From Octopus vulgaris (Eukaryota): a stretch of 64,000 nt of DNA. Under the pieces are notes generated by a model. That model was not told the DNA's origin, made no database searches, and was given only the letters and a program-made list of their open reading frames with translations. A program made the position numbers and the translations under genes. Location of the stretch: NCBI GenBank assembly GCA_951406725.2, contig OX597820.1, positions 73,346,001-73,410,000 on the forward strand. Reading direction: 5' to 3'. Below are positions 3,047 through 52,080 of the stretch, one piece after another. How positions within the stretch are numbered: position 1 is the stretch's first letter; each line of letters opens with the position of its first letter.

Positions 3047-4010
3047 CACTTACACACAGAAGAAGCCCTCCAAAGGCTCATTAACTGTTTTGAGCAAGCA
3101 TGTAACGACTTTGGCTTAGCTATCAGCCTTTAGAAGACCAACATCATGGGCCAGGCTACATCGGACATCCCAAACATACATATTGGAGACCACAGATTAC
3201 AAGAGGTGGAGAAGTTTACCTATCTGGGCTCTACCGTCACCTACAACCTATCCCTTGACGCCGAGCTCAATATACGCATTGGCAAGGCAGCTGCTGCGAT
3301 GGCCCAACTCTCCAAACGGGCTTGGGACAACAATAAGCTGACCAAGACCACGAAAATGAAGATCTACCAGGCATGTGTACTCAGCACTCTACTGTATGGA
3401 AGTGAGACCTGGACGCTATACACACGCCAAGAGCGTCGCCTAAACATTTTTCACCCGCGCTGCCTCCGAAAAATCCTCCGCATCAAATGGCAGAATCATA
3501 TCCCCAACAAAGATGTCCTCAGGCAAGCAGGAATACCAAGCATGTTTGCACTCCTCACACAAAGACGTATGAGATGGCTTGGGCATGTTAGCCGTATGAA
3601 AGATGGAAGAATCCCCAAGGACATACTATACGGAGAGCTTGCTAGGGGTACTAGGTCTGTGGGTAGACCGATCTTACGTTACAAGGATGTTTGCAAAAGG
3701 GACATGAAGGCCTGCAACATCAATATTAGCGGTTGGGAGGCAGTTGCCGGCAACCGTGGAGAATGGCGACGTACTGTAAAAGAGGGAATACAAAGGAGTG
3801 ACAGAGAGAGAGGAGAAATGGAAAGAAAGGAAGAGACGTAAACAAGAGACTATGGCACTACAACCAGCCAGGAACAGTCTTCGCTACATTTGCGGTACCT
3901 GCCAGAGGGAGTGTTTGTCCAGGATAGGACTACACAGCCACAGCAGGAAATGTATCAGGACATGAAATATAAAAGCCGGACTAGACCTCCCGAGACAGAA
4001 AGGATGCCAA
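3047..4010 (+). mobile_element. RTE-clade (BovB-like) LINE, 5'-truncated 3' fragment, pseudogenised
   Basis: ORF 3146..3841 has FTYLGS, LLYGSETW, RWLGHVSRM, RIPKDILYGEL, GRPILRYKD; in-frame TAG at ~3131; frameshifted C-terminal CxxC...SRIGLHSH motif; ends at (TA)n. Confidence 0.93.
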
Positions 4011-12496: not shown

Positions 12497-12884
12497 TGTA
12501 TGTATGTATGTATGTATGTATGTATGTATGTATGTGCAGATATTTATTTTTTGTTTTATGTATGTCTTCTCATGCATATTTAAATGACAAACTTCTGGAA
12601 AGTTTTACAGATTTTTACAGTTCCAGTGCTGGATTGGATCTGCAGTCTTCGAATTAGCTTTCCCCTTTCTGGTTTTGAGAAGCCTAATTTCTCAAGATTG
12701 GTATTTAGGCAGTGTGTTACATATCCCAGGACCCCAATAATTACAGGTATAAACCTGAACTCGTAATCTGGGTAGTGTAACTGCAGATAATTTCTCACAA
12801 GTTCAGCATAGGTGTTCTCTTTTTCACTGATCTTCAGCTTTATGTTAACATCCGCTGGGCAGCTAATTTCCACAACTGAGGAAA
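12259..12884 (-). mobile_element. R4/Dong-like (RLE) non-LTR retrotransposon 3' end
   Basis: ORF 12580..12873 EISCPADVN...EKENTYAEL...FIPVIIGVLGYV resembles the end of the restriction-like endonuclease domain; flanked on both sides by (TATG)n. Confidence 0.75.
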
Positions 12885-13494
12885 TTATGTATGTATGTAT
12901 GTATGTATGTATGTATGTATGTATGTATGTATGTATGTATGTATGTATGTATGTATGTATGTATGTATGTGTGTATGTATGTATGTATGTATGTATGTGT
13001 TTGTGAGTGTGTGTGTGTATGAAAGTATGTGAAAATGGACCTCGAAAGCTTATAAATGAACTGAGTAATTCGTGATGGGTACATTATGAGAAATGAAACC
13101 AGTCACTTTAATCCAACTTCAAGTTGACGAAAGTTCGATAGTTTATCCATCGGGTCTATTTTTGCTGAGATACTAGATATATGCTTGTTTAGCATATTCT
13201 GTATGACATCAATGTACATATATATTAACGAATGAACTACTTAAGTATTATATATACAGATATGTATGTGCTGTGTATGTCATGGGAATTTGAAAAACTT
13301 CGAGAAACGTGAAATAATTGGGGGTTTTCTCAAACGGTGGAACTCGAAATAAATACAGCTATAGTTAATAGCGTGTAGATATCGGGTAAAGAAAACTCTT
13401 TGGGTAGAAAAAGTCGAAGATTTGCCGTGGGACTCGAACCCTCATCGTTTATAGACACGACGTCTGTTTAAGCTTCTAATTCTTTGACGTAATA

Positions 13495-18871: not shown

Positions 18872-18942
<71 letters not shown>

Positions 18943-19024
18943 TAAGGTATGTAGAAAAATACAACATGGACAAGAACGTATAACTCTTAGAAGACGACAC
19001 AATAAACACGGACAGGACATTCGA

Positions 19025-19102
19025 AACCCTCAGTCTTCAGTCAAGAACCGGATCATCGTAGTAATTTCGGCTGATTAATCTTGAGATTACTAGATCACGG
19101 CC
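19025..19102 (-). ncRNA. Non-circularly permuted hammerhead ribozyme candidate (family 1, copy a)
   Basis: Minus strand: TAGTAA-TC-TCAAGA...AGCC-GAAA-TTACTA...TCTTGA-CTGAAGA-ctgag-GGTT; perfect 6-bp helix III and helix I, AUC triplet. Confidence 0.7.
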
Positions 19103-19867
19103 AGCCCTCCAAGAAAAACCAAGCAACGAGCATTAGAAAAACTAAGCTGGAAGCGTAGATTTCCTGGAAGAAGGATCGAATGCATACGAACACCAGGACA
19201 GCAAAAGGGACAGATATAAAAAACAAAAAACAATAATGGAATACAGAAACATGAAATACAGAAGCATTAACGGTGAAAACAACAGTGTCTTACGACTGAT
19301 AACAAGCAAACAAATTTTTTCTCTGGCGCAATGGAAAAAGCCTTTATAGTGGCGGACGAAAACAGCGATGTTAACAGAACGAGGGTCAGAGGCTGAAAGG
19401 CAGATTTCGGCCAACAGTCACGTGACAGAGAAGAGGGAAAAGAAAAGAAAGAGAAGCAAAGGAAGAGAGAGAGAGAGGAGGGACAAACGCAACAAGGAGA
19501 GAGAAGAGAGAGAAAGAAGGAATCAGAGAGGAGAAGGGATGGGTGTCGAAGAATGACCTGTGAGTGCAGAGCGAGACAAAGAAATAGGAGGGTAGTGGAA
19601 GACTAGACCAAAGAATCAGAGGAAAGAGAAGAGAAAAAGAGGATGAGTAGAGAGAAAAGAGAGAGAGGGGGACAGATCAAGTAAAAATGAGAGAGAGAGA
19701 GAGACAAACAGAGAGTCGTACCAATTATTAAGAATATGTGCTCACATAAATGTTAAGGGGGGTACGGGGCGCCTGGAATATATGTTAAGGTATGTAGAAA
19801 AATACAACATGGACAAGAACGTATAACTCTTAGAAGACGACACAATAAACACGGACAGGACATTCGA

Positions 19868-19945
19868 AACCCTCAGTCTTCAGTCAAGAACCGGATCATC
19901 GTAGTAATTTCGGCTGATTAATCTTGAGATTACTAGATCACGGCC
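19868..19945 (-). ncRNA. Non-circularly permuted hammerhead ribozyme candidate (family 1, copy b)
   Basis: Identical motif 843 bp from copy a. Confidence 0.7.
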
Positions 19946-20269
19946 AGCCCTCCAAGAAAACCAAGCAACGAGCATTAGAAAAACTAAGCTGGAAGCGTAG
20001 ATTTCCTGGAAGAAGGATCGAATGCATACGAACACCAGGACAGCAAAAGGGACAGATATAAAAAAACAAAAAACAATAATGGAATACAGAAACATGAAAT
20101 ACAGAAGCATTAACGGTGAAAACAACAGTGTCTTACGACTGATAACAAGCAAACAAATTTTTTCTCTGGCGCAATGGAAAAAGCCTTTATAGTGGCGGAC
20201 GAAAACAGCGATGTTAACAGAACGAGGGTCAGAGGCTATATATATATATATAAATATATAAATATATAA

Positions 20270-20347
<78 letters not shown>

Positions 20348-22944: not shown

Positions 22945-23026
<82 letters not shown>

Positions 23027-23076
23027 TACGTTCTTGTCCATGTTGTATTTTTCTACATACCTTAATATATATATAT

Positions 23077-24690: not shown

Positions 24691-24831
24691 GTGTGTGTGT
24701 GTGTGTGCATATATGGGTACACGACGTCACCGACGATAAACAACATGAAATACGTATATGTAAGCAAATGAGTTCAATACGCAAACAATGAGAGAAACAA
24801 ATGGAAAACAGGATAAGTAACATAAAGAACG

Positions 24832-24907
24832 ACCCTTCATCAGTTGTTGGCTGTCTATCTACTTCTCATTTCGAGCATTGAACAACAATATGAGTCTTCA
24901 AAGACAG
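24832..24907 (-). ncRNA. Non-circularly permuted hammerhead ribozyme candidate (family 4)
   Basis: Minus strand: CTGTCT..CTCA-TA-TTGTTG-ttcaat-GCTC-GAAA-TGAG..AGACAG-c-CAACAA-CTGATGA-A-GGGT; all three helices pair; canonical core. Confidence 0.8.
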
Positions 24908-25125
24908 TTGTTTCCATAAGTATGTAAATATAATTTGTGATTTATGGAAGGTCAAATTTGGGAACAAAGACAGGATAATGGAAACACAAGGAAACCGAAC
25001 GAAAACAAACATGGAGGGTGGTTAAACCAGAACGAGATTAAAATAGCGAACGTTGGCGAAATATTTACTTTGAACAGAGAAAAGATAGAAGAGAGAGGTA
25101 GAATACGTCCAGCCCTTAGGACAAG

Positions 25126-34785: not shown

Positions 34786-34858
34786 CCCCTTCTTCAGCTG
34801 CCCCTGTTTCGACTCAATGCGTGTTTCGAAGGTAAGGGCAGAACACGGCCACGCCGAA
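34786..34858 (-). ncRNA. Non-circularly permuted hammerhead ribozyme candidate (family 3)
   Basis: Minus strand: TTCGGC..CGTG-TT-CTGCCC-tta-CCTTC-GAAA-CACG..GTCGAA..GGGCAG-CTGAAGA-A-GGGG; GUU triplet. Confidence 0.75.
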
Positions 34859-35123
34859 GCAATCCTTCCCGCAAAATGAATTAAATAAAAAATTTTTTGC
34901 GGAGGGGTAAAAAAAGTGACAAGAACAGGACGTAAAAGCAATACAAATGAAGAAAAAAAAACAGTACAAATAAAGATAAAAACAGTAAAATACAGGACAA
35001 GGAAACCAACAATAAGGGCTTTTTTTTAAGCCTAGACGGTGGAAAAATTCGTTAGAACGCATTCTGAAGATCGGCTGCGGAAGAGAGAAAAAAGCTGATC
35101 TTCTCCAAGTAAGTTTTATATAC

Positions 35124-43433: not shown

Positions 43434-45070
43434 CATTGGGGGGATAAATATTTGTACATGTCAAAATTCTTTATTTATTTAATTTCTAATGAACATAAAT
43501 GAGAGATACTAATACTATATTTGCATACACATGCATGGCCACAGCTCGTGAGCTGAAACTAGAAAAAAAAAATAAAGATACTAAGAATATGCAAAAGAAA
43601 CTAATAAATTATAGTAACTAAGGAATTTATATTCAATTATAAATATTTAGGGGTGAAAAAAGTATTCGTACAGAGCATAAATAACTGATAATTCTGATTT
43701 AATACCTTGTAGCATAACCATTATTCAGTTCCACTTCAACCATTCTCTTCTTGTAGTTCTTAATCACCGACTCGCATGTTTCTTTAGGAATTTTTTCCCA
43801 TTCTTCTTGACAAATTTTCTTCAAATCTGCAATGCACGTTGGGGCTCTTGAATGAATTTTAATTTTCAAATAACGCCACAAATTTTCAATGGGGTTCAAG
43901 TCAGGTGACTGGCTTGGCCATTCTAATAATTTTATATTGTGATCGACAATCCATTTTTTGGTAGACTTTGCCGTGTGCTTAGGGTCGTTACCCTGTTGTA
44001 AAACCCACCCTTCACAAAACTGGAGCTTTTCTACAGAGTCCCATAAATTATTGTTCAAAATATTTTGGTACATCTCTACATTCATTCTACTATCTATCAC
44101 ATGTAAATTGCCAGTACCATTTGCAGAGAAACACTCCCACACCATGATGTTGCCACCTCCAAACTTTACGGTAGGGATTGTGCTTTTCCTCCAAACATGG
44201 CTACGCGAATTTCGTCCAAACAATTCAATTTTTGACTCGTCTGTCCATAGAACATTTTCCCAGAATGTATCAGATTTATCTTTATGTTCATAAACAAATC
44301 TTAAACGGCCATCCCTTGGCCTTTTAGTCAACAGTGGAGTTTTTCTAGGAGAGCGCGACTTCAGTTCATTCCTATGAAGTTCATTGCTGATTGTTCATAG
44401 TGTAACACTAGTCCCTGAAGCTAACAAATCTTCTTGCAACTCCTTTCTAGTGATCATTGCTTTTTTTTGTTTGTTTTTTTTTCGATTCTTCGCTTCATTT
44501 TTATTAAAGATCTAGGGGAAATCTTGAGTGGTGCACCGGATCTTATTCTGTTTTCAACAGTTCCTGATTCTTTATATCTTTGAATAAATGAAGATATGGT
44601 AGTAAATGGAATACAAAGGGTCTCTGATATTTTCCTATAACTTTTACCTGCTTTCCATTGTTCAATAATTAAATTTTTCACTAAATTTGTGAGTTCTTTA
44701 CTTTTCGCCATTATTACGATACTACTTTATGTTGTCTCAGTGCTGAATGAAGGAGCTAGTGTTTTGACGCTTAAAAATGACAACTGATAAGATTAGTGGA
44801 ACAAACGAGAAAGCTCTAGTAAAAAAAAAAATTAACAGTATTTTGTGGCATAGAAAATCATAAATTTATTCTGTACGAACACTTTTTCACCCCTAAATAT
44901 TTATAATTGTATATAAATTCATTAGTTACTATAATTTATTAGTTTCTTTTGCATATTCTTAATTTATGCATGTGCATACAAATATAGTATTGGTATATCC
45001 CATTTATGTTCATTAGAAATTAAATAAAGAATTTTGACATGTACGAATATTTATTCCCCCCACCCCACTG
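43434..45070 (-). mobile_element. Tc1-like (DD34E) transposon, full length, long IR/DR-type TIRs, inactive
   Basis: About 200-bp inverted repeats (43434-43673 / 44869-45070), each with duplicated inner/outer motifs; transposase between them. Confidence 0.92.
43699..44711 (-). pseudogene. Tc1 transposase pseudogene
   Basis: N-terminal paired-like HTH (44454..44711), frameshift, then WTDESK...QQGNDPKH...WPSQSPDLNPIENLW; second catalytic Asp replaced by Gly. Confidence 0.92.
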
Positions 45071-51294: not shown

Positions 51295-51329
51295 GTTTCC
51301 GACAAAGAGCTCCGCTCGAAACGTCAAAC
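51295..51329 (+). ncRNA. Minimal hammerhead motif (same family as 1800), probably inactivated (G8A)
   Basis: GTTT-CCGACAA-A-GAGC-TCC-GCTC-GAAAC-GTC-AAAC. Confidence 0.6.
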
Positions 51330-51930
51330 CCTCCTTCTTCCCTTCTTTCCTGAGCGTCCAATAATACTTTATTTGTTCCACATCCTTGCGTTGTTGTCTT
51401 TTTGTTTTCTTGTTTGGATTAACTTTATATATATATATATATATACATATCAAACAGATAGATCCGAGTTCAGTCCAACCTTGAATAAGTGTCGTATAAC
51501 CTCGGACTGGCCCTGGTGTTGCGAGTAGATCTGGTACACGGAAATTGAAAGAGAGCCATCGTGTGCATGTTTTTATATGTCCCCTGCCTTCCACCCTCTT
51601 TGATTCCCTCTCTCTCTGTCTCTCTTTCTCTCTCTCCCCTGCAACCTGCTGCTTCTCCACCATTTCGTTGGCGATCGTATCTCGCCAACATCTGTATTTG
51701 TCCCCTCTACCGAAAAGGTAATTATTTCTACGCCTGCTGCTATGTTTGTTGTTTTGTCTCATTTGGTCTAAAGTCGTATGACAACCACCGTTATATTATA
51801 TTTTGTTTAACCGTTACCGTTTTCAATTTCGTTTTTGTTTCTCGTATTTACATCCGTCTCGTGCGTTCACATTCCTGTCTTCTACCAAGAAATCTAATGC
51901 TTACAGCTTAGTTTTTTTTCTTGGGGCTGG

Positions 51931-52008
51931 CCGAGTTGGAGCAAATATCAGAATTGAACAGCCGAAATTTGCTATGGTGATTCGGTGTCTGACTGAAGAT
52001 TGAAGGCT
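51931..52008 (+). ncRNA. Non-circularly permuted hammerhead ribozyme candidate (family 2)
   Basis: CCGAGT..AGCAAA-TA-TCAGA-attgaac-AGCC-GAAA-TTTGCT..ATTCGG..TCTGA-CTGAAGA-ttgaa-GGCT; compensatory changes relative to family 1. Confidence 0.72.
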
Positions 52009-52080
52009 TCGAATGATTTGTCTGTGTTCCGTGTTTGTCCCTTCCTGTATTTCACGTTCTTTATATATAAAACATTTATT

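Follow-up and report, generated by a model that had tools for sequence, protein, structure and literature searches.

Introduction

The core of the hammerhead ribozyme can be divided into three blocks: S, which carries the cleavage triplet between strands of stems III and I; G, with GAAA between a stem II and a stem III strand; and C, in which CUGAnGA is followed by the other strand of stem II. In types I, II and III these blocks are ordered CGS, GSC or SCG. Orders that are not circular permutations of these have been found in metatranscriptome and metagenome RNAs, and the genomes of known organisms have contributed only one bacterial GCS candidate (PMC10085705). Just two sequences of type CSG were reported, both from metagenomes, and the CUGAnGA-stem II block was assumed to be uninterruptible (Eckert et al., 2023; PMC10085705). 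Here, we describe an element at positions 18942-20237 of a 64,000-nt stretch of Octopus vulgaris DNA (assembly GCA_951406725.2, contig OX597820.1, positions 73,346,001 to 73,410,000 of the forward strand; this whole stretch is called the window, and all coordinates are positions within it), in which the blocks follow one another as S-G-C and block C is predicted to be split.

Retroelements form the second group of related systems. Naiads, a clade of Penelope-like elements (PLEs), have no canonical hammerhead, and remnants annotated as 'HHR_core' and, in eight cases, 'HHR_half_core' are present in their 3' untranslated regions, including those of Naiad_Ovul and Naiad_Esco; (TA)n is their usual target, and partial tandems and 5' truncation have been described for Naiads and other PLEs alike (PMC8557442). 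In PLE hammerheads, single-nucleotide insertions at A9/G10.1 are common (PMC4209133), so that some slack at this point of the core is plausible. For the non-coding retrozymes of animals that lack long terminal repeats (LTRs), spread through circular RNA driven by PLEs has been proposed (PMC7229834; 10.64898/2026.07.22.740005).

Our reading, to which we assign a probability of about 70%, is that the octopus element is a non-autonomous PLE, probably mobilized by a Naiad, whose 843-nt unit carries a monomeric hammerhead of a topology that has not been described. The type of element is known; it is the ribozyme topology that appears to be new.

Anatomy of the element

The element contains two direct repeats (18942-19394 and 19785-20237), which align over 453-454 bp with no substitutions and two single-base homopolymer indels (99.6% by BLAST), on either side of a 390-bp spacer (19395-19784), giving an A-B-A layout. 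The repeat period is 843 bp at both ends and also between the predicted cut sites (19927 to 19085, 843 nt). On the minus strand, the insert runs from a 453-nt 3' part of the unit (19785-20237) into a full 843-nt unit (19784 to 18942) and then into (TA)n, and it thus holds 1.54 unit copies. At the internal junction, the 3' end of the unit is fused directly, head to tail, to the unit's 5' start, and the sequence past the junction is CATATAT, a short match to the TA target. The spacer, which is the 5' part of the unit and occurs only once, begins with about 70 nt of mixed sequence and continues as a CU-rich stretch, being 79% pyrimidine on the minus strand. Runs of (TA)n border the insert at its 3' end (18876-18941) and its 5' end (20238-20346), and the G+C content of the element is about 42%. 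An earlier note on this DNA had described the near-identical repeats of about 453 bp, the biased spacer of about 390 bp, the (TA)n flanks and the 843-nt distance from cut to cut, and all of these stand.

The family has three dispersed insertions in the 64 kb, whose 3' end is constant while the extent of 5' truncation differs; two of them end at the same base. The first of the other two is a 44-bp 3'-terminal fragment (23022-23065, plus strand) that is 100% identical, lies between two TA runs and ends at the same base as the unit at 18942; it is an independent, heavily 5'-truncated insertion. The second is a diverged single copy (51593-52080, plus strand; approximately 70-74% identical; nhmmer E 1.5e-22) with a ribozyme domain at 51870-52015 and an AUA triplet at 51947. 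The last 75 nt of the spacer align to this copy, and the order from spacer to repeat is common to both. A 5'-truncated copy, or pseudo-LTR (pLTR), ahead of a full unit is a feature of PLEs, and we regard the 18942-20237 insert as very probably a PLE partial tandem. The insertion of this non-autonomous element would be recent. The earlier note had suggested a non-autonomous Penelope with tandem pLTRs; the Penelope-like tandem is upheld, but the repeats are a truncated copy before a full unit and not LTRs.

A predicted hammerhead core in S-G-C order

The window was scanned for CUGANGA, GAAA and UH in any block order, with at least 5 bp in each of stems I and III. Five of the 20 CUGANGA sites gave the order S-G-C, with H17 at 19928, 19085, 51947, 34842 and 24889; one extra match, of order GCS, reuses the core at 34.8 kb. 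By comparison, 40 block-wise dinucleotide shuffles produced a single S-G-C match in total, or 0.025 per window. The core nucleotides (CUGANGA, GAAA and NUH) are intact at all five sites, and H17 is only ever C, A or U.

In the 19-kb element the core is made up of CUGAAGA, GAAA and AUC, G19106 pairs with C19069, and both A15.1-U16.1 and G10.1-C11.1 are present. Stems I, II and III abut the core with 6, 5 and 7 bp. Block S (19079-19092, minus strand, as are all features of the element) consists of a stem III strand, the AUC triplet (C17 = 19085) and a stem I strand; block G (19059-19073) consists of the stem II 3' strand CAGCC, GAAA and the other stem III strand; and 19034-19054 holds the 3' strand of a further helix, P4, followed by a stem I strand and the catalytic CUGAAGA (C3 = 19040). 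The linkers of 5 and 12 nt and stems I and III of 6 and 7 bp fall within the descriptor for type SGC (linkers 0-8 and 0-15 nt, stems I and III 4-7 bp; PMC10085705). Cuts are predicted after the AUC triplets, at 19928/19927 and 19085/19084, exactly where the earlier note had placed the cut sites of the permuted hammerhead in each repeat. The note also raised a dimeric fold; with 7 bp in stem III there is no call for one, in contrast to the minimal PLE hammerheads, which depend on dimers.

The same layout was found in two unrelated sequences on the minus strand, at 34786-34907 (GUU triplet at 34842) and at 24831-24953 (AUA triplet at 24889, with an imperfect upstream stem II strand). As neither of these loci has significant similarity to the 843-nt-unit family around the ribozyme, the layout is common to three sequence families. 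All four distinct ribozyme loci sit 115-177 nt upstream of a TA run. At 34.8 and 24.9 kb, the ribozyme in each case closes a truncated insertion whose 3' end is U-rich and adjoins (TA)n. A different PLE family contributes minimal motifs resembling type I hammerheads, at 1804-1830 and 51299-51325 (both plus strand, both with C in place of U4), the latter 270 bp upstream of the 51.6-kb copy.

Changes on both sides of a pair occur in stems I and III, and stem II is constant within the family and differs in sequence between families. When the 19-kb and 52-kb copies are compared, pairing holds in 42 of 44 cells, and both sides have changed in three pairs, a count that is weak with two sequences and is reached by 50 of 500 shuffles; in the alignment, stem III also has one base pair gained on both strands.

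Predicted origin of stem II and the extra helices

An intact block C would have G10.1 and the stem II strand within 0-2 nt of CUGAnGA, and this arrangement is not found in the 19-kb element. The best stem II partner instead lies 72 nt upstream of A9, and the nearest downstream partner would require a 5-nt insertion. At three of the four distinct loci, the strand before GAAA pairs best with a strand 21-26 nt upstream of the cut, through 5 Watson-Crick base pairs; in the 19-kb element this upstream strand is GGCUG (19102-19106, G10.1 = 19106), which is unlinked to A9. The strand that follows it, P4a (19093-19101), pairs just 5' of stem I at all four distinct loci (-7.6 to -10.4 kcal/mol), and the resulting helix P4 corresponds to the helix through which stems I and II interact in Eckert 2023. 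The helix shuffle tests were all designed after the helices had been seen; for stem II and P4 jointly they gave p values of 0.005, 0.0006 and 0.002 at the three loci with five Watson-Crick stem II pairs.

Co-folding of the 95-nt leader and the tail adds two helices, P0 and P5, both part of the minimum-energy structure at all five sites. P5 is a hairpin that stops at G10.1 or one base before it, and P0 joins the strand before P5 to the tail that starts 0-2 nt behind A9. In the 19-kb element, P5 (19107-19169) has a 10-bp base stem and ends directly before G10.1 (shuffle p 0.005), and the 5' strand of P0 (19170-19183) pairs with the G-rich tail behind CUGAAGA (19017-19031) over 8+5 bp (-17.1 kcal/mol, shuffle p 0.0002). 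Across the 843-nt-unit family, the shuffle p for P0 is 0.0002-0.014, with 20 of 20 cells paired and two one-sided changes. The predicted ribozyme domain is larger than the core, at approximately 165 nt (19183-19017 and 20025-19860): in the downstream copy (19017-19183) it reads P0a, P5, IIa, P4a, IIIb, cut, Ib, IIb, GAAA, IIIa, P4b, Ia, CUGAAGA, P0b, and the upstream copy (19860-20025, cut at 19928/19927) is complete, with the same helices.

In this model, a helix and a hairpin inserted between A9 and G10.1 open the core, and the 5' and 3' ends of the domain meet in that junction. The predicted topology is none of the six permutations of Eckert 2023, and the modelled opening at A9/G10.1 would be a fourth way to open the C-S-G cycle, in addition to SGC, CSG and GCS. 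The predicted splitting of the CUGANGA-stem II block is the most novel feature of the locus and had escaped the earlier note.

Two other uses of the tail were considered and set aside. A stem II formed by the bases right behind A9, with a CC bulge, inverts G10.1-C11.1 and, on inspection, leaves only three pairs in the 52-kb copy; and a relic minimal hammerhead in the tail (CUGAAGA...CGAAU) is explained better by the P0 strand.

Published Naiad 3' ends

We compared this layout with 52 Naiad consensus records from the supplement of PMC8557442 (named here by file order, and without the ends of Naiad_Smim and Naiad_Cmel). These records were judged by eye, over their last 260-450 nt only and with nothing computed, and the counts that follow are to be read in that light. 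The split layout was seen in 9 of the 52, from a ctenophore, cnidarians and cephalopods: Naiad_Bfor (stem I only 2 bp), Naiad-3_Chem, Naiad_Amil, Naiad_Anas, Naiad_Aacu (one stem II mismatch), Naiad-2_Movir, Naiad_Obim, Naiad_Ovul and Naiad_Esco (imperfect stem II). Their sequences differ, forming six unrelated sets. Both P0 (10 and 8 bp) and P5 are visible in Naiad_Bfor and the Acropora records, and the tail behind CUGANGA is unable to supply stem II in Acropora, Naiad-2_Movir, Naiad-3_Chem and Naiad_Bfor. A clean type-CSG hammerhead is present in six nematode Naiads (Naiad-1, -2 and -3_Nbra, Hcon, Hpol and Asuum), where the helix joining stems I and II is long. Neither layout was seen in the remaining 37 records within the part covered.

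Other structures were also noticed in these records. The 3' end of Naiad-1_Movir, set next to twister alignment rows, resembles a twister ribozyme and is a candidate for one. Bivalve and hemichordate Naiads have a different conserved motif of about 60 nt after the ORF (open reading frame), which starts with GCGGGUG, contains GGCACCUG or GACACCUG, and is possibly another structured RNA. A GGCAGCCCC-like motif was rejected as a link to Naiad 5' regions, being too short (six matches, two of them outside Naiads).

No report of a permuted hammerhead from an animal genome or a Naiad came up in our literature search, for which most subscription papers were beyond reach, and the terms SGC and CSG hammerhead returned Eckert 2023 only.

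Coding potential and database searches

The circularized 843-nt unit has ATG ORFs of at most 62 aa on its plus strand and 41 aa on its minus strand. In the upstream repeat, a minus-strand frame that stays open for 118 aa has no homolog (0 of 73 candidates at E<=0.01) and no Pfam match, and we rejected a coding role for the element, in agreement with the view of the earlier note that it has no credible ORF. A hydrophobic ATG frame of 76 codons (19883-20110, minus strand), also without homologs, is open in the upstream repeat and disrupted by homopolymer indels in the downstream one. As there is no Naiad-type ORF in the element (N-terminal GIY-YIG, CxC motif, C-terminal reverse transcriptase [RT]), it could only be a non-autonomous dependant of Naiads and not a member by this feature. 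Rfam, run over the window and the element, returned no ribozyme family, only microsatellite-driven miRNA matches and one chance match (E 6.1); the lack of a hammerhead match is expected because the fold is non-nested. Three further candidates were rejected: a viroid-like rod (only 41-43% of bases are paired in the 843-nt fold), a second-strand ribozyme (no CUGANGA on the plus strand of the element) and binding of RT by a hairpin at the 5' end of the unit (z -1.2, not significant).

A scan of GTDB with the family pattern gave 39 loci, none similar to the 843-nt unit (nhmmer E<=1); the only one that fits a loose S-G-C pattern (L015) is taken as chance. Three of the 39 are tandem tRNA-Phe genes with the same spacing as the family. 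GCCGAAAU and GACUGAAGA are common to both by construction of the search pattern. Outside the pattern, an 8-nt block matches tRNA-Phe in register (shuffle p 0.002), the downstream matches (14/35) are not significant (p 0.15), and, taken together, three short blocks within 19003-19071 (minus strand) match tRNA-Phe positions 1-8, 30-38 and 61-68 in exact register. The likeness may be due to chance, or a tRNA-Phe fragment may be the source of the GAAA and CUGAAGA halves in this family; such an origin would not undo the ribozyme. The three tRNA-Phe loci are 160-bp tandem arrays of a eukaryote-type gene on short contigs in bacterial metagenome-assembled genomes (L020, 1-563; L032, 1-678; L038, 1-655), and are probably non-bacterial DNA in these bins.

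The window itself is microsatellite-rich animal DNA with LINE (long interspersed nuclear element) and Tc1 remnants, and the output of a generic repeat finder was dominated by the microsatellites. A Tc1-type transposase remnant is located at 43699-44394 (minus strand), a LINE-like frame, judged by inspection, at 3134-3841 (plus strand), and a C-terminal piece of an RT-associated protein at 12583-12888 (minus strand).

Discussion

Taken from the sequence, the partial tandem, the fixed 3' end, the (TA)n target, the intact core and six predicted helices recurring in unrelated sequences are the basis of our reading. With the type-SGC and type-CSG hammerheads (PMC10085705), the predicted octopus ribozyme shares the S-G-C order, a short linker between the strands of stems I and II and a double-pseudoknot core, and the helix that joins the distal ends of stems I and II in type SGC has its counterpart in P4 at all four distinct loci. 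In those ribozymes, however, CUGAnGA and its stem II strand remain joined in one block; here stem II is predicted to start upstream of the cut, with P0 and P5 branching at A9/G10.1, and the carrier is an animal retroelement. Because block C is split, the element is not a member of type SGC. The core variants and the loop-split Clec2 ribozyme listed in the accessible parts of PMC3088659 and PMC6765202 include no branch at A9/G10.1. Compared with the minimal PLE hammerheads, the ribozyme is similarly placed near the 3' end of the unit, and those hammerheads tolerate one extra nucleotide between A9 and G10.1. In the minimal hammerheads stem III is not stable and dimers are the active form, whereas stem III at the loci described here has 5-7 bp and the block order is permuted; a 7-bp stem III is closer to that of the fungal PLE hammerheads, which are active as monomers, than to that of the weak minimal kind (PMC4209133).

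As to the element, the (TA)n target, the partial tandem with 5' truncation and the absence of a canonical hammerhead are all shared with Naiads, although the octopus element has no endonuclease-RT ORF and is 843 nt long instead of 3.4-4.4 kb (PMC8557442). We consider it reasonably likely that Naiad is the partner clade whose RT/GIY-YIG protein mobilizes the unit. With the non-LTR retrozymes of animals the element shares non-coding tandem units, one predicted hammerhead per unit (at least two complete copies in all) and low G+C content, below 45% (PMC7229834; 10.64898/2026.07.22.740005). The RNAs of those retrozymes measure approximately 170-400 nt (PMC7229834), with consensus lengths of up to 972 bp (10.64898/2026.07.22.740005). 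They are, however, defined by a type I hammerhead in each unit, and this element has a non-nested S-G-C ribozyme and 1.54 copies. By analogy, it would work like an animal retrozyme, as a non-autonomous PLE, but it lacks the type I hammerhead. The likeness to the LTR retrozymes of plants, which the earlier note had also raised, is one of outline only: two direct repeats some hundreds of base pairs long, each with a hammerhead, a non-coding centre and a similar length from cut to cut. Plant retrozymes have type III hammerheads, Ty3-gypsy primer-binding and polypurine-tract boxes, 4-bp target duplications and more than 55% G+C (PMC4918200); the octopus repeats have no TG...CA ends and no TGG-type primer-binding site inside either repeat, the ribozyme is not of type III and the G+C content is lower, and we have therefore dropped this assignment. 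A 4-bp target duplication is unreadable here, as both flanks are (TA)n.

An alternative, which we think unlikely, is that the ribozyme is a plain type-SGC hammerhead in which stem II comes from the G-rich tail behind CUGANGA, across an insertion of 1-5 nt, and the upstream GGCUG, P0 and P5 form an inhibitory switch. Such a structure would keep A9 and G10.1 linked, as they are in all known hammerheads (PMC10085705); at all four distinct loci, 4 bp are available between the tail and the strand before GAAA and, at 24.9 kb, the tail is the only partner found. These tail duplexes are nevertheless weaker at three of the four loci (-3.1 to -5.0 versus -5.7 to -8.4 kcal/mol), the tail pairs better as P0, and at 19 and 52 kb an insertion of 5 nt would be required. 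Furthermore, in the four sets of published Naiads mentioned above the tail cannot pair with the stem II strand.

It is similarly improbable that the structure has been kept for some other job, such as RT binding, end protection or a circularization clamp, with no self-cleavage or cleavage only with protein, no accumulation of an 843-nt RNA, and tandems arising by read-through RNA or template jumps. A precedent for this is the Poseidon PLE: its hammerhead needed protein for cleavage, insertion in vitro did not depend on it, and no RNA-seq ends were located at the cut site (PMC11167929). The 37 Naiad 3' ends without either layout are in keeping with it. What stands against it is a core that is intact at five of five sites, with H17 confined to C, A and U, together with the fungal-type 7-bp stem III.

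That the tandem is an assembly artefact, through false duplication or mis-joining of two genomic copies, is very unlikely. The repeats do differ only by homopolymer indels of the kind typical of read errors, and (TA)n flanks can confuse assemblers. However, the A-B-A insert has a clean head-to-tail junction at the very base where an independent insertion ends, the diverged copy shares the order from spacer to repeat, partial tandems of this sort are typical of PLEs (PMC8557442), and the ribozyme result is independent of the tandem. Finally, it is most improbable that the GAAA...CUGAAGA half is a decayed tRNA-Phe, as in a short interspersed nuclear element, and the hammerhead a coincidence. The three GTDB loci and the 8-nt run in register speak for this, but ARAGORN and Rfam call no tRNA in the element, the overall match outside the pattern is not significant, compensatory changes track hammerhead helices that extend outside any tRNA, and the loci at 34.8 and 24.9 kb share the layout with no significant tRNA likeness.

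Returning to the split hammerhead, we propose the following course of events. The element would be transcribed from its minus strand, and stems I, II and III would build a normal hammerhead core from the strand order IIa-IIIb-cut-Ib-IIb-GAAA-IIIa-Ia-CUGAAGA. A9 would be unlinked to G10.1, with the closing helix P0 and hairpin P5 branching there and P4 tying together the far ends of stems I and II. Each copy would then cleave as a monomer after AUC, releasing an 843-nt RNA with 5'-OH and 2',3'-cyclic phosphate ends. As P0, II, P4 and III span the cut, strand exchange would allow the two ends of the monomer to pair with each other and then be joined, most likely by a ligase of the RtcB type if animal retrozymes are a guide; RtcB circularized their monomers in vitro far better than self-ligation did (PMC7229834). 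The partner protein would nick (TA)n, and reverse transcription would begin inside the RNA, 143 nt downstream of the cut, at a short AUAUAU. Internal initiation of this kind has been shown for the Poseidon PLE (PMC11167929). After passing more than one round of the circle, reverse transcription would stop early and leave 843 + 453 nt. From that start, a cut monomer in linear form could yield no more than about 143 nt, so that an insert of 1296 nt calls for a circular or multimeric RNA or for a transcript left uncut. We think it likely that the ribozyme is active in the modelled split fold; a circular 843-nt intermediate in vivo is put forward tentatively, at a little short of even odds.

Several points weigh against this reading. 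The 24.9-kb locus has no good upstream strand for stem II, the best run being two Watson-Crick pairs and, by eye, three of five pairs at the expected position; P5 is not significant there (p 0.12), and P0 alone is not significant at 34.8 or 24.9 kb (p 0.13 each). A pseudoknot-free fold of the core region gives a competing long hairpin (z -1.0 to +0.9, none significant at any locus). The weak pair count, the after-the-fact design of the helix tests and the judgement of the Naiad records by eye have been noted above, and the Poseidon results count here too. The earlier note had called for an autonomous RT/GIY-YIG element sharing the repeat, and look-ups of two family ribozyme motifs in the Craig supplement gave no match to a published Naiad, although line breaks may hide matches; nor did its proposed search for further partial-tandem copies find another in the 64-kb window, where only one of three family insertions is tandem. 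According to Eckert 2023, the distance between CUGAnGA and the stems exceeds 1-2 nt in no known hammerhead (PMC10085705), which leaves the activity of a core opened at A9/G10.1 unproven.

In summary, permuted hammerheads, which had earlier come only from environmental sequence, are now pointed to in animal chromosomes, with several copies in the 64 kb analysed here. We lean, without great assurance, towards a broader model in which the three-way junction at A9/G10.1 would define a seventh natural hammerhead topology, active and serving as the hidden ribozyme of many Naiads from ctenophores to cephalopods, with nematode Naiads using type CSG; the helices that span the cut would clamp the ends and drive formation of an 843-nt circular RNA for non-autonomous spread. 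A ribozyme with ends still clamped after cutting would be of interest for circular RNA production. As standard descriptors and Rfam models miss the split fold, counts of ribozymes and retrozymes in invertebrates may be too low. Furthermore, the split hammerhead may offer a direct answer to the question of why Naiads lack a canonical hammerhead and yet have kept remnants of its core.

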